From: Hyphomicrobiales bacterium
GTDB taxonomy: Bacteria; Pseudomonadota; Alphaproteobacteria; Rhizobiales; UBA4765
NCBI GenBank assembly: GCA_965247525.1
Contig: OZ252015.1
Coordinates: 1,310,210-1,374,209, forward strand
Reading direction: 5' to 3'
DNA length: 64,000 bases
The notes under the pieces were generated by a model, which worked only from the letters and a program-made list of their open reading frames with translations, was not told the origin of the DNA and ran no database searches. Every line of letters starts with the position of its first letter. Positions within the stretch are counted from its first letter, which is position 1. A program made the translations under genes and the position numbers. This document shows, piece by piece, positions 15,771 through 60,149 of this stretch.

Positions 15771-17318
15771 TCAGGCCGCGTTGTTTTGCAGGCCCAAATA
15801 AGGCGCTTTGAAATGCAGCGTGACGCCGGAGGGCAAAAAGTCCAGTCTGGCCTCGCCGCCAAAGCTGACCGCCAATGTGCGCTCGATCATGCGCGAGCCA
15901 AACCCGCGGCGTGAGGGGGCGCGTACTTCCGGTCCGTCTTTTTCGGCCCATGTCAGATGAAACATGTCGTCCTTTTTTTCCCAGGAAATGGTCACCCCGC
16001 CCCTGTCGTTTGAGAGGGCCCCATATTTCATGGCATTCGTCGCCATTTCATGAAGGATCAGCGAGAACAGCACGGCCGACTTGGAGCTGAGCGGCAGATC
16101 ATCGCCGGAAATATGGATACGCTCTCCTTCACTGCCAAATAGTTTGCTGACATCGCCAATGACGCCGTGCAGCGGTGCGCCTGTGTGGTTGTAGAGATTT
16201 AAAAGATCGTGCGAGGCCGCAAGCGCGCCAATGCGCTGCTCGAGCACGGTCTGTGCCTGTTCCAGCGTTTGCGCCGTGCGCAGGGTCTGTCCGGCGATGC
16301 TCATGACAACGGCCAATGTGTTTTTCATCCTGTGCTTGAGCTCATGGATGAGGAGCTGTTTCTCGGCATCGGCCTTTACGCGCTCTAACGCCGCGTGAAT
16401 GCGGTCCGCCACATTTTTGAGAAAATCAATTTTATCAAGCGACCAGTTATGGGGCTTATCGTCATGGAGAAACAAAAGAGCGACAAGCTTTCCGTTCTCG
16501 CGCAAAGGCACGTTCAACAAAGCCTTCACGGCGATTTTGTCAAAGCTGTCCAACTTTGTTTTCGTGCGCGGATCTTGTGTAATGTCAGCAATGTGAATCG
16601 TGACGCCTTTTTTCATGTCTTGATAAAAAGAGCCATATTCGCGCATGTCATGGCGCCTTGAGATTGTGCCGACGCCTTCATCGCGCCGCCAGTCTTGGTG
16701 CACATCGACATAAGTCTCACTTGCATCAAAAGCGGCATAACCTGCGCGCGACACTCCAAAAAGCCGCCCGACAATCTCCATGGCGCAATAGGCAATATCG
16801 GTTGCCTCGGTCATGTCGCGCAAACGGTCGCCGATTTCCAGCAAGGCCGTTTGTCTTTGCTCCGCCTGTTTGCTTTCGGTGACATCAATTGTTACGCCGG
16901 GGAAACGGATGGCCTGCCCGTCCTCAAACTCAACAGCACCGCGCGCCAGAACATGCCGCGTTGATCCATCAGGCTGAACCACGCGATACACATGATCGAA
17001 CGGCGTGCCGTCTTTCAGTGCCGCATCAATTGCCTTTTCGGTTCCGCCAAGATCGTCAGGATGAATGCCATTTAAAAAAGACGAAATGGCAACGCCTTCT
17101 GCGGCCGCAACCGGATCGACGCCGTAAAGCGTTGCAAAGCGCTCATTGGTATAGACCCTGTCGTTAAGAATGTCCCAGTCCCAGGTTCCAACCATGCCTG
17201 TCAGGTCCAAAGCGATACGCAAGCGCTCCTTGCTGCGCGCAAGTTCAGCGCTGATTTTGCGCACATCCTCGGCAAGAGGCGGCGGCAAATCGTCTGTGGC
17301 TGTTGTTGGGGTGATCAT
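15771..17318 (-). CDS. cytoplasmic PAS-GAF-HWE sensor histidine kinase
   Basis: PAS (GTWDWDILNDRVYTNERF), GAF-like middle region, H-box ELKHRMKNTLAVV, HEMATNAMKYG, and W..E motifs SWEKKD/TWAEKDGP. No TM segment. Confidence 0.85.
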   Translation of the reverse strand: MITPTTATDDLPPPLAEDVRKISAELARSKERLRIALDLTGMVGTWDWDILNDRVYTNERFATLYGVDPVAAAEGVAISSFLNGIHPDDLGGTEKAIDAALKDGTPFDHVYRVVQPDGSTRHVLARGAVEFEDGQAIRFPGVTIDVTESKQAEQRQTALLEIGDRLRDMTEATDIAYCAMEIVGRLFGVSRAGYAAFDASETYVDVHQDWRRDEGVGTISRRHDMREYGSFYQDMKKGVTIHIADITQDPRTKTKLDSFDKIAVKALLNVPLRENGKLVALLFLHDDKPHNWSLDKIDFLKNVADRIHAALERVKADAEKQLLIHELKHRMKNTLAVVMSIAGQTLRTAQTLEQAQTVLEQRIGALAASHDLLNLYNHTGAPLHGVIGDVSKLFGSEGERIHISGDDLPLSSKSAVLFSLILHEMATNAMKYGALSNDRGGVTISWEKKDDMFHLTWAEKDGPEVRAPSRRGFGSRMIERTLAVSFGGEARLDFLPSGVTLHFKAPYLGLQNNAA

Positions 17319-27930: not shown

Positions 27931-29418
27931 ATGATGCCGATCGCCCATAACTCTTACATACGCCGCACTTTTGTTCTGCTTTTTTGCGGTCTTGTCGCAT
28001 TGCTTTGCATTGTCGGGGCCTCGCTCTGGCTGGCCCAGCGCAGCGACAGCGATTTTGAAACAATGGTTGCAAACCGCCAGCTCCGGATTGCGGCGAGTGA
28101 TATTTTGTCGCTGGTGCAGGATGCCGAAACAGGACAACGTGGTTATATTATTTCAGAAAACGCCGAGTTTTTGGAGCCTTATAATTCTGCAGCCTCGCAA
28201 TTTCAGGAAAAGCTCAGCCGGTTCGATAATCTTCTGGGTGAGCGCGATGATGTACGGCAAAAAATCGATACGGTATTGCATGCAAAAATGGACGAGCTGC
28301 ACCAGACTGTGGCCCTGGCGCAGAAAGGTGATTTTGCACAGGCGCGCGAGATTATAAAAAACCGGCGCGGCAAAGTGTTGATGGATCAGGCAAGAACCAA
28401 TCTGGGTGTGGTGCTCAATAACGCTGAACAAAAAATGGCCATGGTAACATTGGAGCAGCGGCAGAACCTGCACAATTTGCGTCTTGTGACACTTGTTGGG
28501 GCAATCGTCATTTTGCTGGTGATTGCCGGCGCACTCATCACCACTTTGCAATACCTGCGTGAGCTAGCGGCCTCGCGCCTGTTGCTTGAGAATGTGAATG
28601 CGAGCCTGGAAACAAGGGTTCAGGAGCGTACACAAGATCTCGTGCGCGCCAACGAAGAGGTGCAGCGTTTTGCCTACATCGTCACGCATGACCTGCGCGC
28701 GCCGCTGGTCAATGTCATGGGATTTACGGCGGAGCTGGAAACAACGTTGAAAACCATTCAGGACTATGTCCTTGCCGAAGGCGAGGTGCGTGAAAACGTT
28801 ATTCATGAGGCAAGGCTGGCCGCGCAAGAGGACCTGCCGGAGGCCATTGGTTTTATCCGCTCATCGACCCGTAAAATGGATGGGCTGATCAATGCGATCT
28901 TGAAAATTTCACGAGATGGGCGCCGGCCGCTTAACCGTGAAAAAGTGGATTTAAAAGAGCTGGCACAGGGAACGGCCGATACGCTTCACCATCAGGTCAG
29001 TGAAAATGGCGGCCAGATTGCGATTGGCTCAGGCCTGCCGACAATCATCAGCGACAGGCTGTCACTGGAGCAGATTTTCAGCAATCTGTTTGACAATGCG
29101 TCCAAATACAGCGCGCCAGAACGGCCGCTGGAGGTCAAAGTCTCCGGGGAGCGCAAAAACAATGGTGATATTGTTGTTAGCATTGCCGACAATGGCCGCG
29201 GCATTACCGAAAGCGACCACCAGCGCATCTTCGACCTGTTCCGGCGCTCAGGCGTGCAGGACAAGCCTGGCGAAGGCATCGGCCTTGCGCATGTCAGAAG
29301 CCTGGTGCGCAATCTTGGCGGCGATATTGTCGTCGCGTCTTCCCTTGGACAGGGAACAACTTTCAGGATAACACTGCCAACAGATATTAAAAACGTGCCA
29401 AGGAGTACCATGAATTGA
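27931..29418 (+). CDS. CHASE3-domain sensor histidine kinase
   Basis: TM-CHASE3-TM layout (ETGQRGYIISENAEFLEPY). H-box THDLRAPL. DNASKY, DNGRGI and GEGIGL boxes. GGAG RBS. Confidence 0.88.
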   Translation: MMPIAHNSYIRRTFVLLFCGLVALLCIVGASLWLAQRSDSDFETMVANRQLRIAASDILSLVQDAETGQRGYIISENAEFLEPYNSAASQFQEKLSRFDNLLGERDDVRQKIDTVLHAKMDELHQTVALAQKGDFAQAREIIKNRRGKVLMDQARTNLGVVLNNAEQKMAMVTLEQRQNLHNLRLVTLVGAIVILLVIAGALITTLQYLRELAASRLLLENVNASLETRVQERTQDLVRANEEVQRFAYIVTHDLRAPLVNVMGFTAELETTLKTIQDYVLAEGEVRENVIHEARLAAQEDLPEAIGFIRSSTRKMDGLINAILKISRDGRRPLNREKVDLKELAQGTADTLHHQVSENGGQIAIGSGLPTIISDRLSLEQIFSNLFDNASKYSAPERPLEVKVSGERKNNGDIVVSIADNGRGITESDHQRIFDLFRRSGVQDKPGEGIGLAHVRSLVRNLGGDIVVASSLGQGTTFRITLPTDIKNVPRSTMN

Positions 29419-29867: not shown

Positions 29868-30899
29868 ATGGCAGACCTTCGCGTCCTTTATGTCGATGAC
29901 GACCCGGCGCTGACGCGACTGGTGCAAAAAGCGCTTGGCCGTCAAGGCATTGACGTCATTGCCGCGGAGGACGCGCAAGGCGCATTGGCGGCACTCGATG
30001 CAGCGCACGTTGATGTCATCGTTCTCGACCATTATCTTGCCGCTGGAACCGGCCTTGATATTCTCGGCAGCCTGAAAACACGCGCTCTTGCGCCGCCTGC
30101 CATTTACGTCACCGGCTCTGCCGAAACCGCTGTTGCAGTTGAGGCGCTCAAAGCGGGCGCTGAAGATTATATTTACAAAACGGCCGACAATGAATTCATG
30201 GTGCTTCTTGGCAGTGCCATCAATCAGGCTGTGGAGACCGCACGCCTGAAACGCGAAAAAGCACAGGCCGATGAAGATGTGCGCAAAGCGCGCGATCTTG
30301 CCGAACTGCTTTTGTCGGAGGTCAACCACCGCGTCGCCAATTCATTGGCATTGGTGGCCTCTCTCGTTCGCATGCAAATGACGTCGGTGGTCGATCCGGC
30401 CGCCCGCAATGCGCTGGCCGAAACTCAGGTGCGCATTTCAGCGATTGCTGACATTCATCGCCGCCTCTACACCTCTGAAAATGTCGCCTTTGTCGAAATG
30501 GACGCCTATCTGTCCAGCCTTCTAAGTGAGCTGGGCGCCGCCATGCAGGGCAATGGGTCTGCACTGCATATCCAGTCGGATCTCGACCCCGTGCGCATGG
30601 CGACAGACAAGGCGATCTCGGTTGGCATGATGGTCACCGAGCTGGTCACAAACGCTTTTAAATATGCCTATCCCGGCAGCCAGAGCGGTGAGATCCGCGT
30701 GAAACTGCGGCAGCACGAAACGGGCCTGGCAACACTGTCGGTTGAAGATGACGGCATTGGCTGGACAGGAGACGGCGCAGTGCAGGGTACAGGCCTTGGC
30801 ACGCGCATCGTCAATGCCATGGCCAAAAATCTGGATTCACAAACGGTGTACCGGCAGGTGGGCGCCGGCACGCAAGTGAGCGTGGATCTGGCGTTTTAA
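29868..30899 (+). CDS. receiver-HisKA_2 hybrid histidine kinase
   Basis: N-terminal receiver (YVDDD, VLDHYL). H-box [33 protein letters not shown]. Confidence 0.85.
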
Positions 30900-31059: not shown

Positions 31060-31144
31060 TGGTGCCCCTGGCCGGAATCGAACCAGCACGCCTTTCGGCA
31101 CTCGATTTTGAGTCGAGCGCGTCTACCAATTCCGCCACAGGGGC
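31060..31144 (-). tRNA. tRNA-Leu (anticodon CAA)
   Basis: Minus-strand sequence GCCCCTGTGGCGGAATTGGTAGACGCGCTCGACTCAAAATCGAGTGCCGAAAGGCGTGCTGGTTCGATTCCGGCCAGGGGCACCA. It folds as a cloverleaf with a long variable arm, anticodon loop CTCAAAA and encoded CCA. Confidence 0.93.
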
Positions 31145-49165: not shown

Positions 49166-49786
<621 letters not shown>

Positions 49787-49842: not shown

Positions 49843-51684
49843 TTAAGGTTGCACGGAAAGCAAAACGCTCGCATCGGTGCTGAGATGGTCGATGATAAGA
49901 AAGCCGCCTTTTTGTTCGGCATGGCCGCAGGCGGCGCATGACACAAATTGTGCTTTTGCAGGCAGTTGCAGCGTCAGCCCGTCAACCGGTTGGGGCACTG
50001 ACAGCTGGACGTTGAGCTGTGTCGCGTTTTGCTGCACATCAATGCCGATCTGGTCGCGCGCTGTCCAGAACTGGCCAAACTGGGCCACGGAGCCGTACCA
50101 GGCGCTGTCTCCCATCGCTTCGACAAAGCCTTTTTCAAAAGCGAATTTCTGACCGATGACATCGGGATGAATCAAAATATTGAACAAGGCGCCGTATTTT
50201 TTGAGTTTTTCGGCCAAAACAATAGCCTGCGGCAAGCGGTCCAGCATCGGCGGGTCAAAAAGATCCTCAACCGTAATCGGAAACTCAAAAACGGGGACTT
50301 CGGCGATGGTGTCGCGGCCATAGGTCAGCTGAAAGGGAAGGTGGGTGATTGAATCATTGGCTGTCACAGATGAGCTGAAAAGGTAATGGGTCGCCGCCAG
50401 CGCCTGGGGCAGAATGTAGGGGTCGCGCAAATGGCCGGGGCGGAACGACACGACAGGCCTTTCCGGTTCAAAATGGTCGAGCAAAAATTTACTCACGCGC
50501 AGCTCGCCAAGAATTGTGCCGCCAACCGTGGTGTTTTTGTCTTTTACGAAAGGAACATAGTTGGGATAGGCTTCTTTGCCTGTGCCCATTTCAAATTTGT
50601 CGAAGCTTTGCGAGTGGGCAATGGAATGGCTGGCAATTTCCATATTCATGGCCCGAATTTTTGAAAGTGTTTTTGTGCCCTCGTCGGTAAAGAAAATATC
50701 ATCATTCCAGTCGCGCACATATTTGACCTGCATGAAATAGGTCGCGCTGATATGGTTTTCGCTTTCATAGGCGGCATATTGCACGGCATTCAAAAGAGAT
50801 TTTGTGTAGTCAATGTCATGTGTCAGCTGCACAGTCAGTGCTTTTCCGTGCGGCACGGTCCACAAGGTCACGCCGCTTTGCTGGCCTTTGATGTAAACGT
50901 TTTTTAGAAAACGAAGCATGACATCGAGCGTCGGCTCATAAGCATTGACATAGCTGGTGGCGATATCCTGCTGCCGGTTGTTATAGCCTTTTTGCAAAAA
51001 ATAGCCGATGTCAAAGCCCAGCGCATACGCCGTGCCCGCCGCATTGCGCAAGATGGCCGGTGTTCCGTCTTGATAGGTTGCAATGGTGTTGGCAGATTGT
51101 GCGACATAGCTGTAAGCGCCGAGGGCAGGATTTTTGGCGCTGCCAATTTTCAGCGTTTTTTCATCGGGGTCGGTAAAGTTTGATGTCGCAGCATCGGCTG
51201 CTGAGAACAGCAGTTGCGTTGCGTTTTTATTCGGCACGACATCTTCATAGTTAAAAATATTTTTTAGCGCGCCGGTAAAAACCTGCTGGGCAATCAGCGT
51301 GCCGCCTTTTGATGGAAAGGCGCTGAGCGCGCCCAGCGCGTCCGCTGACAGGTTACGGCCTGTAATGTTTGGAAACACATAGACCACTTTATGCTTGAGC
51401 GCGGCCTGATAATCTGTCGTCATCATAAACGGAATGCCGATGGTTTTCAGGCCGTGCGCCAAGGCCATCCAGTCGGATGTCGTGTCGGTGAGCAGAACCG
51501 CCATCCGGCTGTCGGAGCCTGTGGCATAGACCTCCCATTTTGCGGGAGTTGGCGGTTCGACAATACTGACATCGCTTGGCCCCGACAGGTCTTTGAAGCG
51601 GTAGAAATAATCTTGGGACTGGTACCAGTAAGCGGCAATAGGGACGGCAAACAGCAAAAATGCCAAAAGGAGAACGCGTTTCAT
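49843..51684 (-). CDS. secreted or membrane-anchored protein with polysaccharide deacetylase (NodB/CE4)-like core
   Basis: N-terminal hydrophobic anchor MKRVLLLAFLLFAVPIAAY. THDIDYT and EIASHSIAHS resemble CE4 motifs 1 and 2. Confidence 0.5.
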   Translation of the reverse strand: MKRVLLLAFLLFAVPIAAYWYQSQDYFYRFKDLSGPSDVSIVEPPTPAKWEVYATGSDSRMAVLLTDTTSDWMALAHGLKTIGIPFMMTTDYQAALKHKVVYVFPNITGRNLSADALGALSAFPSKGGTLIAQQVFTGALKNIFNYEDVVPNKNATQLLFSAADAATSNFTDPDEKTLKIGSAKNPALGAYSYVAQSANTIATYQDGTPAILRNAAGTAYALGFDIGYFLQKGYNNRQQDIATSYVNAYEPTLDVMLRFLKNVYIKGQQSGVTLWTVPHGKALTVQLTHDIDYTKSLLNAVQYAAYESENHISATYFMQVKYVRDWNDDIFFTDEGTKTLSKIRAMNMEIASHSIAHSQSFDKFEMGTGKEAYPNYVPFVKDKNTTVGGTILGELRVSKFLLDHFEPERPVVSFRPGHLRDPYILPQALAATHYLFSSSVTANDSITHLPFQLTYGRDTIAEVPVFEFPITVEDLFDPPMLDRLPQAIVLAEKLKKYGALFNILIHPDVIGQKFAFEKGFVEAMGDSAWYGSVAQFGQFWTARDQIGIDVQQNATQLNVQLSVPQPVDGLTLQLPAKAQFVSCAACGHAEQKGGFLIIDHLSTDASVLLSVQP

Positions 51685-51843: not shown

Positions 51844-52389
51844 TTATTGCGCAAGAAGGGTGCGAATATTGCTTTCCGTTTCAGCGTAATTTCCTTCGCC
51901 AAAATGCGTGTAGACAACCTGCCCCTGCTTATCGATGAGGTAAAAAGCGGGCCAGTAATGGTTGTTGTATCTTGTCCATGTGTCGAGCTGATTGTCGACG
52001 GCCACGGGATAGGTGATCCCGAATTTTGTCACGGCGGCGCTGACATTCGCGATTTTCTTTTCGGCCTCAAATTCGGGCGCCTGAACACCAATTACAATGA
52101 GACCCTGTTCGCGAAATTTTTCATTCCACGCTTTCACATAGGGTAGCGTATTGACGCAGTTGTAGCAGGAATAGGTCCAGAAATCGACGAGCACGACCTT
52201 GCCACGCAAAGCGGACAGACGCAGCGGCTTGCTGTTCAGCCAAGCCTCGATGCCCGAAAACTCCGGCGCGGAATAGGGCTTGGCCAGTCCCTCTTGCAAG
52301 CCGGCGCCGGGCTTTGCCACCGCGGCGTTCACGCTGGCAAAAACAAAACTCAACGCAGAAGCAATCAAAAGACAGCCGAGACTTTTCAT
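51844..52389 (-). CDS. periplasmic thioredoxin-fold (TlpA/redoxin-like) protein
   Basis: Signal peptide. FWTYSCYNCVNTLP CxxC motif. Lies 5 nt downstream of msrA. Confidence 0.82.
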   Translation of the reverse strand: MKSLGCLLIASALSFVFASVNAAVAKPGAGLQEGLAKPYSAPEFSGIEAWLNSKPLRLSALRGKVVLVDFWTYSCYNCVNTLPYVKAWNEKFREQGLIVIGVQAPEFEAEKKIANVSAAVTKFGITYPVAVDNQLDTWTRYNNHYWPAFYLIDKQGQVVYTHFGEGNYAETESNIRTLLAQ

Positions 52390-53003: not shown

Positions 53004-53162
53004 TTAAACTTTGATATCGAATGAGGTTGTGAAATTCAGAGCCGCCGATTGCGCGGCCGTGGTTTTGTCATGCGCGGGATCAAACCTGTCCTGCTTGTCA
53101 CGCACCAGCTCGGCATATTTCTCGGCCGGTGAGGAGCAGGAGGTGCAGCGCGATATGCTCAT
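53004..53162 (-). CDS. candidate small ORF (52 aa, CxxC near the N-terminus) heading the msrA operon; not in the ORF track
   Basis: My translation: MSISRCTSCSSPAEKYAELVRDKQDRFDPAHDKTTAAQSAALNFTTSFDIKV. ATG...TAA ends 9 nt before the msrA ATG. Third-position G/C bias resembles neighbouring genes. Weak RBS. Confidence 0.3.
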   Translation of the reverse strand: MSISRCTSCSSPAEKYAELVRDKQDRFDPAHDKTTAAQSAALNFTTSFDIKV

Positions 53163-53309: not shown

Positions 53310-53855
53310 ATGGTTACACAGCCTGAAAAAAACCAGCGTATTTGCGACCTGATGCTCGCCGGTTGCAGAGGCGACCAAGCAGCCTATGCCTGTTTTTTAA
53401 AAGAAATTTCCAATGACCTGCGCCGCTTTTTACAAAGGCGTATGCCCAAAGATGACGTTGAAGATGTCTTGCAGGAAATCCTCATTTCCGTTCATAAAGC
53501 CCGCCACACCTATGATGGTGTGCGCCCGATCCTGCCTTGGGTCTCGGCGATTGCACGTTTTCGCTTAAGCGATTATTTGCGCAAACATTACGCCCGCGCC
53601 AAACACGCCACAATTGATATTACCGAATTGCAGGACAATCTTGCACAGCCCGTAACCGAAACCGGGGCCGATACCGAATACCTGAATGACGCGCTGCGTC
53701 AGTTGCCGCACAGACAGCAGAAGATCATTCATCTGATGCACACGCAGGGCTACACGGCAAAAGAGGTGGGGGGGCAGCTGAACATGAATGAATCGGCTGT
53801 AAAGGTTGCGGCACACAGGGCTTATAAAGTGATAAGGGCACGTTTAAATAAATAG
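53310..53855 (+). CDS. ECF sigma factor (SigF-like, partner of NrsF)
   Basis: Region 2 (LQEILISVHKARHTYD, PWVSAIARFRLSDYLR) and region 4 (QQKIIHLMHTQGYTAKEVGGQLNMNESAVKVAAHRA). Its stop lies 1 nt before the nrsF ATG. Confidence 0.88.
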   Translation: MVTQPEKNQRICDLMLAGCRGDQAAYACFLKEISNDLRRFLQRRMPKDDVEDVLQEILISVHKARHTYDGVRPILPWVSAIARFRLSDYLRKHYARAKHATIDITELQDNLAQPVTETGADTEYLNDALRQLPHRQQKIIHLMHTQGYTAKEVGGQLNMNESAVKVAAHRAYKVIRARLNK

Positions 53856-53856
53856 A

Positions 53857-54501
53857 ATGGGTAAGATCGACGGGTTGATCGACAGTTTGAGCAGCGAGGC
53901 CGCCACTACAAAGCGGTTGCCGTCTCCGCTTGTTCAGCTTTTGCGCGCCGGTCTTGTTCTTGTCGTTTATGCCATTGCCGCCAGTCTTTTTCTCGGACGC
54001 AGGCCAGATCTCGCCTTTCAGATTGAGCGGCCGTTTTATTTGCTTGAGCTCATAATCTTGCCAATCATTGCGTTCTCCAGCCTTCGCGCAGCCTTTTATC
54101 TGTCCTACCCGGACAGCTATCAGCAAAAGCGCGTAGGGCTGTGGCCGCTGGTCAGCGGACTGGCTTTGATCGGGTTGATCCTTTTGCAGATCCTGATGCC
54201 GGCCGACAGCAGGATGCAGCTGCCTGAGGGTGTCAACGGCATGGACTGCGCCACCTGCATTTGTGTTTTTGCCATGCTTCCTTCAGCATTCTTGTTTGTT
54301 CTGCTGCGAAAAGGCGCCACTACGCATCCGCTGCGGGCCGGGCTGTTTATTGCTTTAAGTGCTGCCAGCACAGGCTGTTTTATCTTGCGACTTGCGGAGC
54401 CCAATGACTCTCTGGTGCATGTTCTGCAATTTCATTATTTGACCACACTGGCCTGTGCCTTTGTCGGCACGCTTATCGGAAAATTCGCGCTTCGCTGGTA
54501 G
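53857..54501 (+). CDS. nrsF: NrsF-family (DUF1109) membrane anti-sigma factor
   Basis: N-terminal IDGLIDSLSSEA helix, 6 TM helices, and Cys in periplasmic loops (GMDCATCIC, STGCFIL). Confidence 0.82.
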   Translation: MGKIDGLIDSLSSEAATTKRLPSPLVQLLRAGLVLVVYAIAASLFLGRRPDLAFQIERPFYLLELIILPIIAFSSLRAAFYLSYPDSYQQKRVGLWPLVSGLALIGLILLQILMPADSRMQLPEGVNGMDCATCICVFAMLPSAFLFVLLRKGATTHPLRAGLFIALSAASTGCFILRLAEPNDSLVHVLQFHYLTTLACAFVGTLIGKFALRW

Positions 54502-54567: not shown

Positions 54568-54593
54568 GTAACGTCCTTACCTTGGCTCACGAA
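54568..54593 (+). promoter_or_regulatory. candidate ECF (SigF-type) promoter upstream of the Cys-rich precursor gene
   Basis: GTAACG-tccttaccttggctca-CGAA (N16), about 110 nt upstream of ATG 54704. Confidence 0.5.
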
Positions 54594-54703
54594 TAAAACA
54601 GTAATCGCTGTGACGGTCTGGTCTTCTAAAGTCCTGCTTACGCCGCGGTTTCTTCCCGGGCTGTCACTTTTGAAGTCCGGTCATTCAAACAAGGAGTTCT
54701 CCA

Positions 54704-54955
54704 ATGTCATCATCTAAATTTGCTGCAGCAGCGCTTGCAGGCCTTCTCTCCGCTGGTGTTGTTTCGGTCGGTACCGTGCAAGCTGCCGGTCTCGATAAAA
54801 CAACATCATCAACAATGGCGTCAGAAAAGCATGCTTGCAAAGGCATGAACGCTTGTAAGGGCCAAGGCGGCTGCAAAGCCGGCGACAATGGCTGCGCTGG
54901 CAAGAACTCTTGCAAAGGCAAAGGCGGCTGCGCAACGGACGGCAGCAAGAAGTAA
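54704..54955 (+). CDS. bufA: Sec-signal, six-Cys Gly/Lys-rich RiPP precursor (bufferin-like, 6-Cys class)
   Basis: AAGGAG RBS 7 nt upstream. Signal peptide MSSSKFAAAALAGLLSAGVVSVGTVQA/AG. Core CKGMNACKGQGGCKAGDNGCAGKNSCKGKGGC. Lies immediately upstream of a DUF692 enzyme. Confidence 0.8.
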   Translation: MSSSKFAAAALAGLLSAGVVSVGTVQAAGLDKTTSSTMASEKHACKGMNACKGQGGCKAGDNGCAGKNSCKGKGGCATDGSKK

Positions 54956-54978
54956 TTTTACGCTTTATTTAAAAAACG

Positions 54979-55000
54979 GAAGCGGGACTTGTCCCGCTTC
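54979..55000 (+). other. intercistronic stem-loop between the precursor and the modification gene
   Basis: GAAGCGGGA-cttg-TCCCGCTTC (9-bp stem). No T-run follows. Confidence 0.6.
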
Positions 55001-55032
55001 TACACTTCATTCAATATCAAGGCGGTCATATT

Positions 55033-56760
55033 ATGAATTCTTCTTCACAGACATCGTGGGAAAAACCGGACAGCTTTTTTCCAGATCTGGGGTTCGGCCT
55101 TGGCCTGCGCATTGATCATTACCCGCATATTTTCAACCAGTGGCCTGATGTTGACTGGTTTGAAATCATCTCCGAAAATTTTATGGACACCGACGGCAGG
55201 CCGCTGCGCAATCTGGCGCGCATTCGTGAGCGCTATCCGGTTGTCATGCACGGCGTGTCGATGTCGATCGGCACTGTTGACCCCATCAATTCCGAATATA
55301 TGGCCAAGCTGAAAAAGCTGATGGACTGGCTAAAGCCTGCATGGGTGTCTGACCATCTGTGCTGGACAGGCGTTGCCCATAAAAACACGCATGACCTTCT
55401 GCCCGTGCCTTACACGGAAGAATCTTTAAAACAAATCATCTCACGCATCAAACAAGTGCAGGATTATCTGGAGCGCCCGATCGCGCTTGAAAATCCGTCA
55501 ACCTATCTTGAATTCAAAGCCTCGCACATTCGCGAAGAGGAATTCATCTCGCGCATGGCGGAGGAATCCGGCTGCCATCTGCTGCTCGACGTTAACAATG
55601 TGTATGTCAGCTGCTACAATCACCGCCTTGATCCCAAGGCCTATATCGACGCGATGCCGCTCGACAAGGTCGCGCAAATCCATTTGTCCGGACACACCAA
55701 CAAAGGCACGCATATCGTCGATACACATGACGACCATGTGGTCGATGAAGTCTGGGCGCTCTATCGCTACACCATTAACAAGGCACAGCGCACCATCACG
55801 ACCATGGTGGAATGGGACGGAAATATTCCTGAATTTGATGTGCTGAATGCGGAACTTGCCAAGGCAAAAGTCGCCGCTCAAGATGCTCATAATTACGGCA
55901 CGCTTCCCGACCTTGCCAAAAACCATCCCTATTACATTGCCAATATGGAAACGCCTCTGGTTGAACAACAGACCCGCATGCAGGCTGCGATTGTCACTGG
56001 GAAAGACCCTGAGCAAAATCCAGCGGCATGGATTCGCGAGAAGCCAGACTTTCCTGCCGCAGAGCAGCTGAACGTCTACATCGAATCCTATCGCTTCCGC
56101 CTCTATGATGTTGTGGCCGAAGATTATCCCGTCCTGCAGACCTATCTTGGCGACGATGCGTTTGAAAAACTGATCTGGTCTTTTCTCGACGCCGCGCAAT
56201 CGGAGCATTTCAATATTGGACGTTATGCCGCACGCCTTCCGGCTTTTTTAAAGCAGTACAATCCAGTCGATGCTTTTGCAGTTGAGATTGCGAAGCTTGA
56301 AAACGCCGTGTCGCAGCTGACAGACCCAGCAGAGACCGTCGCGCTTGAGCCGCAGCATCTTGGCGCCTTAACGGCTGACACATTAATGGAGATGAAGCTT
56401 CATCCGCGCACAGCGTTGGAGCTGTTTTCCTTCGCCTATCCCGTCAATGCCTATTACATCGCGGTCAAGGAAGAGTCGCTGCCTGAAAAGCCTGCGCTGC
56501 AGCACAGTTTTGTTGCCGTGTTCCGGCATGATGACGTTGTCTGGCGTATGGACCTTGGCGAAAACGAATACCATCTTTTGACAAAGCTTTTTTCAGGCGT
56601 GCCAATCGGGCAGGCCATGGACGAGCTGCAGCACGAGCGCGCGCTCCCCGATGATGCGCTGGCCGCCAATTTGTCGGACTGGTTTTCAAGGTGGATCCGC
56701 AACGGACTTCTTGCAAAAGAACCAATTTCACATCTCTCAGAAGAAAGTCATGCCGCATGA
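55033..56760 (+). CDS. fused DUF692 (MNIO, BufB/MbnB-like) and DUF2063 (BufC-like) RiPP maturase
   Basis: N-terminal ~300 aa TIM-barrel DUF692 motifs VMHGVSMSIG, SDHLCW, ENPSTY, LLDVNNVYVS, IHLSGH, DTHDDHV. The C-terminal ~270 aa are DUF2063-like (NVYIESYRFRLYDVVAEDYPVLQTYLGDDAFEKL). Confidence 0.85.
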   Translation: MNSSSQTSWEKPDSFFPDLGFGLGLRIDHYPHIFNQWPDVDWFEIISENFMDTDGRPLRNLARIRERYPVVMHGVSMSIGTVDPINSEYMAKLKKLMDWLKPAWVSDHLCWTGVAHKNTHDLLPVPYTEESLKQIISRIKQVQDYLERPIALENPSTYLEFKASHIREEEFISRMAEESGCHLLLDVNNVYVSCYNHRLDPKAYIDAMPLDKVAQIHLSGHTNKGTHIVDTHDDHVVDEVWALYRYTINKAQRTITTMVEWDGNIPEFDVLNAELAKAKVAAQDAHNYGTLPDLAKNHPYYIANMETPLVEQQTRMQAAIVTGKDPEQNPAAWIREKPDFPAAEQLNVYIESYRFRLYDVVAEDYPVLQTYLGDDAFEKLIWSFLDAAQSEHFNIGRYAARLPAFLKQYNPVDAFAVEIAKLENAVSQLTDPAETVALEPQHLGALTADTLMEMKLHPRTALELFSFAYPVNAYYIAVKEESLPEKPALQHSFVAVFRHDDVVWRMDLGENEYHLLTKLFSGVPIGQAMDELQHERALPDDALAANLSDWFSRWIRNGLLAKEPISHLSEESHAA

Positions 56761-57266
56761 TCGATACAGCAGATAGCACCCACACATCAATTTTTAGCAA
56801 AGCCGTTGCGCTCTTGATCGGCTGGCCGGAATGGGTCGCCTCGCATTTTTTATGGGCAGGGCCACTTTTTGCCCGCATCGTTGTCGGCTACGTTTTTATG
56901 CTGACAGGTTGGGCCAAGTTGCACAATCTGCCGGCAATGATTGAGAATTTTGCGGGCTGGGGCATTCCCTATCCCGAAATCCTCACGCCTTTTGTTTCAG
57001 GCGTCGAGTTTTTCGGCGGCCTTTGCCTGATCTTCGGTCTGTTTACCCGCATCTTTGGCGGCATGCTCTCCGGTGTCATGGTGGTTGCCATCATTTCAGC
57101 AAAATGGAGCGATATTGACTCTGCTGAAACCCTACTGGGTTTTGAAGAGACAACCTATCTTGCTGTTTTCTTCTGGCTGGCGGTTGCCGGCGCCGGAAAA
57201 GCCTCGCTGGATTATCTTCTGAACAGCAAATTTGGAACATCAAAAGCGGCTGTCTCGTTCCGTTAA
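56757..57266 (+). CDS. DoxX-family membrane protein
   Basis: 4 TM helices. FARIVVGYVFMLTGWAKL. ATGA overlap with the upstream gene. The track start at 56691 is an extension. Confidence 0.82.
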   Translation: MIDTADSTHTSIFSKAVALLIGWPEWVASHFLWAGPLFARIVVGYVFMLTGWAKLHNLPAMIENFAGWGIPYPEILTPFVSGVEFFGGLCLIFGLFTRIFGGMLSGVMVVAIISAKWSDIDSAETLLGFEETTYLAVFFWLAVAGAGKASLDYLLNSKFGTSKAAVSFR

Positions 57267-57330: not shown

Positions 57331-57405
57331 TGGTGCCGATGGAGGGAATTGAACCCCCGACCTTCGCTTTACGAAAGCGCTGCTCTACCCCTGAGCTACA
57401 TCGGC
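57331..57405 (-). tRNA. tRNA-Thr (anticodon CGT)
   Basis: Minus-strand sequence GCCGATGTAGCTCAGGGGTAGAGCAGCGCTTTCGTAAAGCGAAGGTCGGGGGTTCAATTCCCTCCATCGGCACCA. Anticodon loop TTCGTAA. Encoded CCA. Confidence 0.93.
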
Positions 57406-58787: not shown

Positions 58788-60149
58788 CTAAAGAGAAAAA
58801 ACAAGTCGCGCGGCCGTGCCGGGGTCGCCGGCACTGTAATTAATCTGCGCGCCCAAGCTCGCTGCCATCGTTTTAACAATTTTTGTACCAAGTCCCGTTC
58901 CTTTCGGTTCGGCGCTTTCATGACGGCCGACACCGTCATCTTCAACTGTAAGCTCAATCTGCTTGTCCAAGAGATGTCTGAGACGAACACGAATTTCCCC
59001 AACGCGGTCAGGATAAGCATATTTAAAAGCGTTGGTCACAAGCTCAGCAACGATAACACCTAGATTGATGGTTGCATCTGTTGGCATATCAAATGGCTCA
59101 ATGTCGTATTTCAAAGACGCGCCATGCCCTTCGTCGCGCATTGATATTTCAAGGTGCTCAAGCAGACTTGAAAGATAGTCATGCATTGCGACGAAACGCA
59201 CATCTCCTGAGCTATAAAGGCTTTTATGGACAGATGCTACGGCGTAAATACGCGCCTGCGTTTCACCAAGAGCTATTTTTGCAGCTTTGTCCGTCAGCAC
59301 ATTGGCTTGCAGTCGCACAAGCGAAGCGACAAGTGAAAGGCTATTGGCAACGCGGTGGTTGACTTCGGCAAGCAGCAATTGGGCGCGGTCGCGGGCCTGC
59401 GCCAGATCGGCTGTGCGGTTTTGAACGCGTTCTTCAAGTTTTGTATTGAATGCCGTGACTTCATCACGTGTTCTAGACAGCTCACACGTGTAACGAAAAA
59501 GTGCAAAAATGACGGAGGCGACGACCCCAACAATAACAAATCCACCCATAATCGAAATCCAGCGAAGCCACGACGCATTGGCGCGCTGCTGGCGCACGCC
59601 TGCGTTCAAACTTTCATCGGATGTGCGGATAATGCCTGCAAAAAAAACATTGGCTTCATCAATCAAAGCCTTGCCGCGATTGGTGCGAGTTGTTGCCAAA
59701 GCCTCTGGATCGTGCCGCTCACGCTTAAGCGCAATGATTGTATCCATTTCATCGACCTTCTCGATAATGATGGTTTCAAGGCGCTGCAAAGCGACCTGCG
59801 TTTGGGGGAAGGACACAAGGCTGTCTTTTAAAACCATAAGCTGGCGCAGCGCGACGGTTTTGGCTGTCGAATAAGGTGCAAGATAAATCTCGTTGCCCGT
59901 GTAGGCGTAACCGCGCTGGCTCGATTCTGCAGTCTGAATGGCATTGCGTAATTCGACGGCAGCCGTGCGCGTATCGCGCGCTGCAAAAGCCTGATTGGCA
60001 TAATCTTGCGTGCGCTCCACCAGCCATATCGTCATGCCGACAATGCTAAGAAGCGTCATGAAACCGACGGCAAGCAGAACAATTGTTGTGCGGACAGAAA
60101 AATGGCTTTTGACAGGCATCACCACAATGGCATGCCTGATGTTGAACAT
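58788..60149 (-). CDS. CHASE3-HisKA_2 sensor histidine kinase
   Basis: TM-CHASE3-TM layout (ESSQRGYAYTGNEIYLAPY). H-box [35 protein letters not shown]. Confidence 0.85.
   Translation of the reverse strand: MFNIRHAIVVMPVKSHFSVRTTIVLLAVGFMTLLSIVGMTIWLVERTQDYANQAFAARDTRTAAVELRNAIQTAESSQRGYAYTGNEIYLAPYSTAKTVALRQLMVLKDSLVSFPQTQVALQRLETIIIEKVDEMDTIIALKRERHDPEALATTRTNRGKALIDEANVFFAGIIRTSDESLNAGVRQQRANASWLRWISIMGGFVIVGVVASVIFALFRYTCELSRTRDEVTAFNTKLEERVQNRTADLAQARDRAQLLLAEVNHRVANSLSLVASLVRLQANVLTDKAAKIALGETQARIYAVASVHKSLYSSGDVRFVAMHDYLSSLLEHLEISMRDEGHGASLKYDIEPFDMPTDATINLGVIVAELVTNAFKYAYPDRVGEIRVRLRHLLDKQIELTVEDDGVGRHESAEPKGTGLGTKIVKTMAASLGAQINYSAGDPGTAARLVFSL

Follow-up and report, generated by a model that had tools for sequence, protein, structure and literature searches.

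Bufferins, described in 2024-2025, are periplasmic copper chelators whose cysteines are oxidised to 5-thiooxazoles (PMC11626156, PMC12452194, bioRxiv 10.1101/2025.11.18.689057). In Caulobacter vibrioides, BufB and BufC are necessary and sufficient for this conversion, which lowers the mass by 4 Da per cysteine. The signal peptide of the C. vibrioides bufferin is dispensable for modification and drives Sec export, and DoxX is not needed for modification. Modification in the cytoplasm followed by Sec export, with cleavage of the precursor at the predicted site, has been shown for the family (PMC11626156). For the Buf2 type, a product 18 Da lighter than the unmodified peptide was reported, in which each of the four central cysteines loses 4 Da and Cys I and Cys VI stay unmodified, probably as a disulfide; canonical Buf2 reportedly has a fold similar to that of Buf1. 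Copper induces Buf2, for which copper protection was also reported; in C. vibrioides, the heterocycles bind the metal and shield growth from copper stress. BufA2, its precursor, has been placed in the Cys-Lys group, for which NACKG was named as a common five-residue motif (bioRxiv 10.1101/2025.11.18.689057).

Here, we analysed a 64,000-nucleotide stretch of contig OZ252015.1 from a Hyphomicrobiales bacterium (the window), which carries a small open reading frame (ORF), bufA, encoding a precursor of 83 residues directly 5' of a maturase gene, bufBC. We conclude with high confidence that bufA encodes the precursor of a Buf2-type bufferin (BUF_6/12Cys, "Cys-Lys" captophorin), that is, a periplasmic copper-buffering peptide that is ribosomally made and modified after translation (RiPP). 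The locus is a complete bufferin cluster, composed of an extracytoplasmic function (ECF) sigma factor gene, an NrsF gene, a sigmaF-type promoter, bufA, a hairpin, bufBC and doxX. The original prediction, made from the letters of the window, had read the ORF as a Sec-exported RiPP precursor with periodic cysteines suited to a repeatedly acting Cys-modifying enzyme. This reading is supported, as the next gene encodes an MNIO maturase that exceeds the BufB cutoff (363 against 310 bits), and the family known from the literature is modified in the cytoplasm and then exported by Sec (PMC11626156). The novelty was, however, overestimated, because the family, the Sec signal, the 5-thiooxazole chemistry and the copper-buffering role are already published and a curated NCBIfam model exists. 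What is unusual here had escaped that prediction, namely the fusion of maturase and partner, a 7-residue deletion in the peptide and a conserved sigmaF-type promoter. The features peculiar to the locus (a compact single-module peptide under the curated cutoff, a naturally fused maturase and the adjacency of SigF/NrsF) are modest and useful additions.

The bufA gene and its Buf2-type precursor

The bufA gene comprises the following features:
54691-54696, plus strand: Shine-Dalgarno sequence AAGGAG, 7 nucleotides 5' of the ATG, read from the sequence
54704-54955, plus strand: bufA ORF, precursor of 83 residues, read from the sequence
54704-54784, plus strand: predicted signal peptide (residues 1-27), with a signal peptidase I cut expected after VQA (hydropathy, -3/-1 rule)
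54785-54955, plus strand: core peptide of 56 residues with six cysteines, a compact Buf2 module, plus the stop codon

The bufA gene is under strong purifying selection. Compared with its closest relative, at locus L016 (87% peptide identity; related loci are cited by their L numbers), the ratio of nonsynonymous to synonymous substitution rates (dN/dS) is 0.088, and 11 changed codons in the 41-codon Cys domain amount to one amino-acid change; the intergenic DNA 5' of bufA has diverged almost wholly between the two, with two short islands remaining. A protein-collection search with the peptide returned 6,326 clusters at E <= 0.01. Twelve single-module homologues (58-87% identity) show no variation in the six cysteines, in the distances between them or in the adjoining EKHAC and GGCATDGSK. 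Because of the number of matches, this invariance and the low dN/dS, the Cys pattern lies far beyond chance, and a chance or non-coding ORF at 54704-54955 was ruled out by the dN/dS value and the invariant cysteines. The exact peptide sequence was not found in a 15-billion-protein collection, in which the neighbouring 575-residue BufBC protein of the same genome is present; gene calling therefore seems to have overlooked the bufA ORF. In a PDB sequence search, the sole match to the peptide was a spurious one to a spider toxin (E 0.38).

The ORF, its ribosome-binding site, the signal-like N-terminus, the composition and the Cys spacing were all listed by the original prediction, and all are present in the sequence. 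GGAG-type ribosome-binding sites lie at the equivalent position in most related loci. By sequence rules, the N-terminus MSSSKFAAAALAGLLSAGVVSVGTVQA is predicted to be a signal peptide, with the basic K5, hydrophobic residues 6-22 (10-residue Kyte-Doolittle means reaching 2.3) and V-Q-A at -3 to -1, and A-x-A-like cleavage sites are kept among the homologues. The mature peptide contains 6 Cys, 12 Gly and 10 Lys in 56 residues. Its cysteines, at residues 45, 51, 57, 64, 70 and 76 (nucleotides 54836-54931), are spaced by 6, 6, 7, 6 and 6. The claim that most of them stand in a C-(K/A)-G context holds for exactly four of the six, the remaining two being C-K-A and C-A-T. Lys directly follows four of the six cysteines, and the NACKG motif is present (as MNACKG). 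Neither a loss of the Cys pattern nor a disrupted frame, two of the outcomes named beforehand as speaking against the peptide, was seen when the homologues were checked.

Comparison with 6/12-Cys bufferins, also suggested at the outset, was carried out with canonical BufA2 proteins from annotated plasmids of Asticcacaulis excentricus (L017) and Legionella pneumophila subsp. fraseri (L018), reached via an MNIO-domain search; a tblastn search of plasmids with the peptide itself returned no match, probably owing to the low-complexity filter. All six bufA cysteines align one-to-one with both proteins, and the spacing of Cys I-V is identical (6, 6, 7, 6); with the Legionella protein, the peptide shares 54% identity across a 35-residue core. 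In the subfamily of the window, seven residues are deleted between Cys V and Cys VI, which makes the Cys spacing regular, and the Cys-for-Cys alignment with this deletion therefore defines a "compact" Buf2 module. The precursor contains two modules (12 Cys) in 105 of the top 120 homologues, one in 11 and three in 4. The residues after each cysteine are position-specific: KG after Cys I and Cys II, K(S/T/A) after Cys III, AG after Cys IV, KG after Cys V and A(T/V/S) after Cys VI. In line with the description of Cys-Lys captophorin precursors by Gadgil et al. (2025), bufA encodes multiple Cys-Lys motifs and lies in an MNIO-PME1 cluster. Two other memberships were rejected. The peptide is distinct from the 4-Cys DUF2282 (PF10048) precursors, as had been anticipated, with no Pfam match even at E <= 10 and six cysteines rather than four. 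Membership in Buf_EGKCG/oxazolin was discarded given that the EGKCG motif is missing and that the maturase scores 249 bits on HvfB against a cutoff of 360. As a side observation, the BufA2 genes in L017 and L018 are annotated only as hypothetical proteins.

A fused maturase and the predicted product

The maturase gene starts 78 nucleotides 3' of bufA:
55033-56760, plus strand: bufBC, 575 residues; MNIO at residues 21-281, DUF2063/RRE (HvfC-type) partner at residues ~312-561

Its product scored 362.9 bits on NCBIfam MNIO_BufB (cutoff 310) and 353 bits on Pfam PF05114, and its partner half matched HvfC (E 7e-11) and carries PF09836. At least 120 sequence clusters keep the MNIO-DUF2063 fusion: the top 120 homologues all span 550-585 residues and all contain both PF05114 and PF09836. 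Homologues at 55-70% identity occur in 15 loci from alphaproteobacterial metagenome-assembled genomes (MAGs), many of whose records are labelled Rickettsiales, for which MNIO-PME1 clusters have been reported as depleted (Gadgil et al.). At the most distant loci of the set, L014 and L015, which carry DUF2282 precursors, the MNIO and partner halves lie in different frames and are thus separate B and C genes. We found no mention of natural MNIO-DUF2063 fusions in the literature.

AlphaFold2 modelled BufBC with a predicted local distance difference test score (pLDDT) of 84 and a predicted template modelling score (pTM) of 0.78. In Foldseek, the N-terminal half matched TglH, 3BWW and MbnB at template modelling (TM) scores of 0.74-0.82, in keeping with the TIM-barrel fold of MNIO enzymes, and the C-terminal half matched NGO1945/3DEE (TM 0.71) and also TglI. 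Across 49 sequences, ten BufBC residues (H73, H108, E153, D186, N189, H217, D230, H232, E260 and D262) do not vary; on the basis of MbnB structures, we take them to be iron-ligand or catalytic candidates.

By analogy with the characterised homologues, single-chain BufBC would act on the precursor in the cytoplasm, where its DUF2063/RRE half would hold the substrate and enable the iron cluster, and its MNIO half would use O2 for four-electron oxidations of Cys to 5-thiooxazoles. The Buf2 alignment predicts that Cys51, Cys57, Cys64 and Cys70 are modified and that Cys45 and Cys76 form a disulfide, for which we computed a mass of 5376.28 Da, against 5394.42 Da for the unmodified peptide. Sec would then export the peptide, signal peptidase I would cut after Ala27, and the 56-residue product would presumably chelate Cu(I)/Cu(II) in the periplasm.

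Several points weigh against the Buf2-type reading. On the NCBIfam BufA2 model (NF050166, with a cutoff of 60 bits), the bufA peptide reaches 38 bits (E 1.4e-9) and covers model positions 6-65 of 79, whereas the canonical proteins of Asticcacaulis and Legionella match along the whole model with 100 and 80 bits; one 12-Cys relative clears the cutoff with 65 bits. Besides the 7-residue deletion, the subfamily lacks the canonical C-terminal tail and ends in its own, GGCATDGSK. Cys45 (Cys I) is followed by K-G, as at modified positions, in contrast to the S or Y that follows canonical Cys I. AlphaFold2 on the peptide (121 sequences) gave a pLDDT of 50 and no secondary structure, and the published residue numbers of C. 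vibrioides Buf2, Cys24/Cys50, fit neither spacing. On the side of the enzyme, BufBC has Gly directly behind the catalytic Asp (EWDGNIP, versus ERDFNFP in 3BWW), at the FonB-Phe250 position where Asp is the signature of Cys-Lys MNIOs (Gadgil et al.); among the 120 fused relatives, Asp (EWDD) is found in 108 and Gly in 7. The K-G after Cys45, the missing C-terminal segment and the lack of an AlphaFold2 fold make the choice of modified cysteines the weakest step of the proposal.

The same observations bear on an alternative that keeps the family and the enzyme and changes the product. Since the peptide has lost the canonical C-terminal segment and its Cys I stands in the C-K-G context of modified cysteines, the single-module compact product may be an unfolded Gly/Lys-rich chain with five or all six cysteines converted to thiooxazoles and no structural disulfide, a flexible multi-site chelator binding several copper ions. 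We consider this possible, though rather unlikely. K-G follows Cys I in 178 modules of the top 120 homologues, like Cys II and Cys V, and every cysteine is modified in fontiphorin and bulbicupramide. However, all six cysteines align with canonical BufA2, where Cys I and Cys VI escape modification; A-T/V/S, and not K-G, consistently comes after Cys VI, so that at least this residue looks different; and a low pLDDT is weak evidence for a short Gly-rich peptide. If true, such a product would differ in architecture from the characterised Buf1 and Buf2, and the naturally single-chain MNIO-partner enzyme would be a subject for structural and spectroscopic work on the activation of the iron cluster by the partner domain.

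A further reading, in which the MNIO neighbour is incidental and the peptide is an unmodified, metallothionein-like Cys-rich periplasmic peptide that holds metal via thiolates or disulfides, appears very improbable. Metallothionein-like coordination has been raised as a possibility for such six-Cys peptides (PMC8692599), some precursor genes do not lie beside an MNIO, and the fused maturase genes of L004 and L007 have no adjacent precursor. Nevertheless, the precursor stands directly 5' of the maturase in 13 of the 15 fused-clade loci as well as in L016, 12-Cys homologues from other lineages keep the peptide-MNIO-DUF2063 order, and copper protection and binding in Caulobacter need BufB, BufC and the heterocycles. 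Equally remote is an oxazolone-thioamide pair, as in methanobactin, in place of the 5-thiooxazole: the two are isomeric with the same -4 Da shift and HvfA was originally assigned the former (PMC11252979), but oxazolin was reassigned to 5-thiooxazole by two later studies, which saw the same chemistry in every MNIO-PME1 system tested, and Buf1 was assigned thiooxazole by nuclear magnetic resonance. The Buf2-type bufferin is our preferred reading of bufA.

Gene cluster and predicted sigmaF-type regulation

The remaining features of the cluster and of the divergent region upstream are:
51844-52389, minus strand: thioredoxin/ResA-like gene; Pfam Redoxin 58 bits
52395-52994, minus strand: msrA, periplasmic-type; Pfam PMSR 191 bits
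53292-53317, minus strand: second, perfect sigmaF-type site GTAACC-N16-CGAA, overlapping the sigF start codon, divergent, toward msrA
53310-53855, plus strand: ECF sigma factor (SigF-like), 181 residues; Pfam Sigma70_r2, Sigma70_r4_2 and Sigma70_ECF; NCBIfam sigma-70 ECF
53857-54501, plus strand: NrsF-family membrane anti-sigma factor, 214 residues; Pfam NrsF 116.6 bits, E 1.8e-33
54568-54593, plus strand: sigmaF-type promoter GTAACG-N16-CGAA, ~110 nucleotides 5' of bufA, one mismatch to the Caulobacter site
54978-55001, plus strand: GC-rich hairpin between bufA and bufBC; 10-bp stem, fold -19.8 kcal/mol, z = -3.2
56757-57266, plus strand: doxX (bufD-like) membrane protein, 169 residues; Pfam DoxX 68 bits; NCBIfam HvfX family E 4e-17, under cutoff

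The gene order sigF-nrsF-bufA-bufBC-doxX recurs among related MAGs, and the cluster is single-copy within the window. The sigma gene is found at the matching position in L001, L003, L006, L008, L010, L015 and L016, and doxX, whose ATG overlaps the bufBC stop codon (ATGA), is kept downstream in L003, L005, L007, L008, L011, L013 and L016. The NrsF of the window has cysteines at residues 131, 134, 136, 174 and 200; Caulobacter NrsF, also 214 residues long, has functional Cys131 and Cys181 (PMC3511200).

In Caulobacter, the experimentally defined sigmaF site GTAACC-N16-CGAA lies upstream of both buf operons (PMC3511200). GTAAC-N17-CGAA occurs twice in the window, against 0.18 expected occurrences. 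In 12 of the 15 loci, the 300 nucleotides 5' of the precursor gene contain a site with no more than one mismatch, each with a different spacer sequence; only 0.6% of shuffled upstream regions carry one. The promoter motif is a conserved island inside an otherwise diverged intergenic region, and together with the adjoining ECF sigma and NrsF genes it suggests a SigF/NrsF regulon of the Caulobacter type. By analogy with Caulobacter, metal stress would inactivate the membrane-bound NrsF and free the sigma factor, which would then transcribe bufA-bufBC-doxX from the conserved motif at 54568-54593. SigF/NrsF adjacency has been reported for Buf1 clusters and not for Buf2 clusters (Antoine et al.); its occurrence beside Buf2 is not unique to the window, because an Asticcacaulis plasmid shows the same. 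On that plasmid (L017, pASTEX01, NC_014818.1 236687-243532), bufA2-B2-C2-sigF-nrsF-nrsF is divergent from a buf1 DCBA operon, with the sigma factor inside the Buf2 cluster and two tandem NrsF genes.

The hairpin between bufA and bufBC has counterparts in 11 loci, where a perfect stem of different sequence stands at the equivalent place, usually followed by a T-run; in the window the T-run is weak. The conserved element may act as a leaky terminator or as a transcript stabiliser that lets the precursor transcript exceed that of the enzyme. In four loci (L001 5622-5647, L005 4112-4137, L006 5652-5677 and L008 5604-5629), the 3' end of bufBC contains a sigmaF-type motif shortly 5' of doxX, which suggests an internal doxX promoter; no such site was found 5' of doxX in the window with two mismatches allowed.

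The divergent site overlapping the sigF start codon recurs at the equivalent position in L006, L015 and L016, and the region around it is 86% identical to L016, far above the region upstream of bufA. msrA also lies upstream of sigF in L006. From the position of this site, msrA and the thioredoxin/ResA-like gene probably belong to the SigF/NrsF regulon and would be co-regulated with the bufferin genes. About 130 nucleotides downstream of the divergent site lies a 52-residue ORF (53004-53162, minus strand; MSISRCTSCSSPAEKYAELVRD...). It contains a CxxC motif, shares 82% identity with L016 across the 22 residues available at the end of that locus and has no Pfam match; it may be either a small gene of this regulon that has gone unannotated or no more than a conserved leader.

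The precursors associated with fused maturases vary considerably. A shorter module with four cysteines, KHACKGxNSCKGQGADGKNxCKGxGSCATDGSK, occurs singly or in two copies (8 Cys) in L003 (3685-3936), L009 (187-417), L005 (2072-2431) and L011 (3578-3913), and the precursors of L008 and L012 consist of highly diverged C-x-G-K repeats. No recognisable Cys-rich precursor was seen within ~4 kb of the fused maturase in L004 and L007; in L007, a sigmaF-type motif lies only ~45 nucleotides 5' of bufBC. Judged from these sequences, the precursor evolves fast while the maturase stays at 55-70% identity.

Directly past doxX, a tRNA-Thr(CGT) gene (57331-57405, minus strand) marks the end of the cluster; together with tRNA-Leu(CAA) at 31060-31144 (minus strand), it makes up all Rfam matches in the window. 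On the other side, a secreted-looking protein of 613 residues (49843-51684, minus strand) has no NCBIfam match and a sub-threshold match to polysaccharide deacetylase (E 0.024), and is adjoined by a homologue of TMEM175-type potassium channels (49166-49786, minus strand). A 453-residue protein (58788-60149, minus strand), provisionally labelled histidine kinase with no family search behind the label, has paralogous matches at 27931-29328 (plus), 30276-30872 (plus) and 15852-16358 (minus).

Comparison with known systems

The findings at the bufA locus leave the current understanding of bufferins unchanged. The window peptide lies below the BufA2 cutoff, and the compact Buf2 module, which has thousands of homologues, is probably under-annotated, so the NCBIfam model could be widened. 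The cluster also extends the SigF/NrsF-bufferin copper-stress module to uncultured alphaproteobacteria with records labelled Rickettsiales.

One of the closest known systems is Buf2, with BufA2 of C. vibrioides (NF050166). Both have six aligned cysteines, C-K-G motifs and a neighbouring BufB-class MNIO with a DUF2063/RRE partner; the Sec signal, sigmaF-type regulation and copper-buffering role of Buf2 are predicted for the window peptide as well. The window peptide differs by the deletion between Cys V and Cys VI, the tail GGCATDGSK, the C-K-G context of Cys I and the lack of a confident predicted fold. Moreover, its maturase and partner are fused, and its cluster includes doxX, which the C. 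vibrioides buf2 cluster does not. The 12-Cys compact forms (such as P0002, P0005, P0008 and P0043) share the same 6-Cys module, with 80-90% module identity and the same position-specific residues after each cysteine. In contrast to the window, they carry two modules (as do 105 of the top 120), some have lipoprotein signals, and the three loci examined have separate MNIO and DUF2063 genes with neither sigma/NrsF nor DoxX adjacent.

In the Lys-Cys captophorins (oxazolin HvfA, fontiphorin and bulbicupramide, with EGKCG repeats), an MNIO and a PME1 likewise turn repeated cysteines into 5-thiooxazoles that bind copper, and HvfA has a Sec signal. Their motif is K-C-G, whereas that of the window is C-K-G, and their enzymes have Phe where the clade of the window has Asp or Gly; FonBC did not process an NACKG substrate. 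Buf1, of the DUF2282 family, shares the operon logic and SigF/NrsF regulation, and its two central cysteines become thiooxazoles. Unlike the window peptide, which has no DUF2282 match, Buf1 holds four cysteines in a folded DUF2282 domain.

Finally, the arrangement of BufBC resembles that of an engineered HvfB-HvfC fusion, which was built to get around the difficulty of obtaining the heterodimer in stoichiometric amounts and proved markedly more active than the co-expressed pair (bioRxiv 10.64898/2026.07.17.739211). Both place the MNIO N-terminally and the partner C-terminally in one chain. The engineered protein is artificial and has no linker, whereas BufBC is a natural fusion with a linker of ~30 residues, is conserved in its clade and could serve as a well-behaved single-chain enzyme for enzymology.

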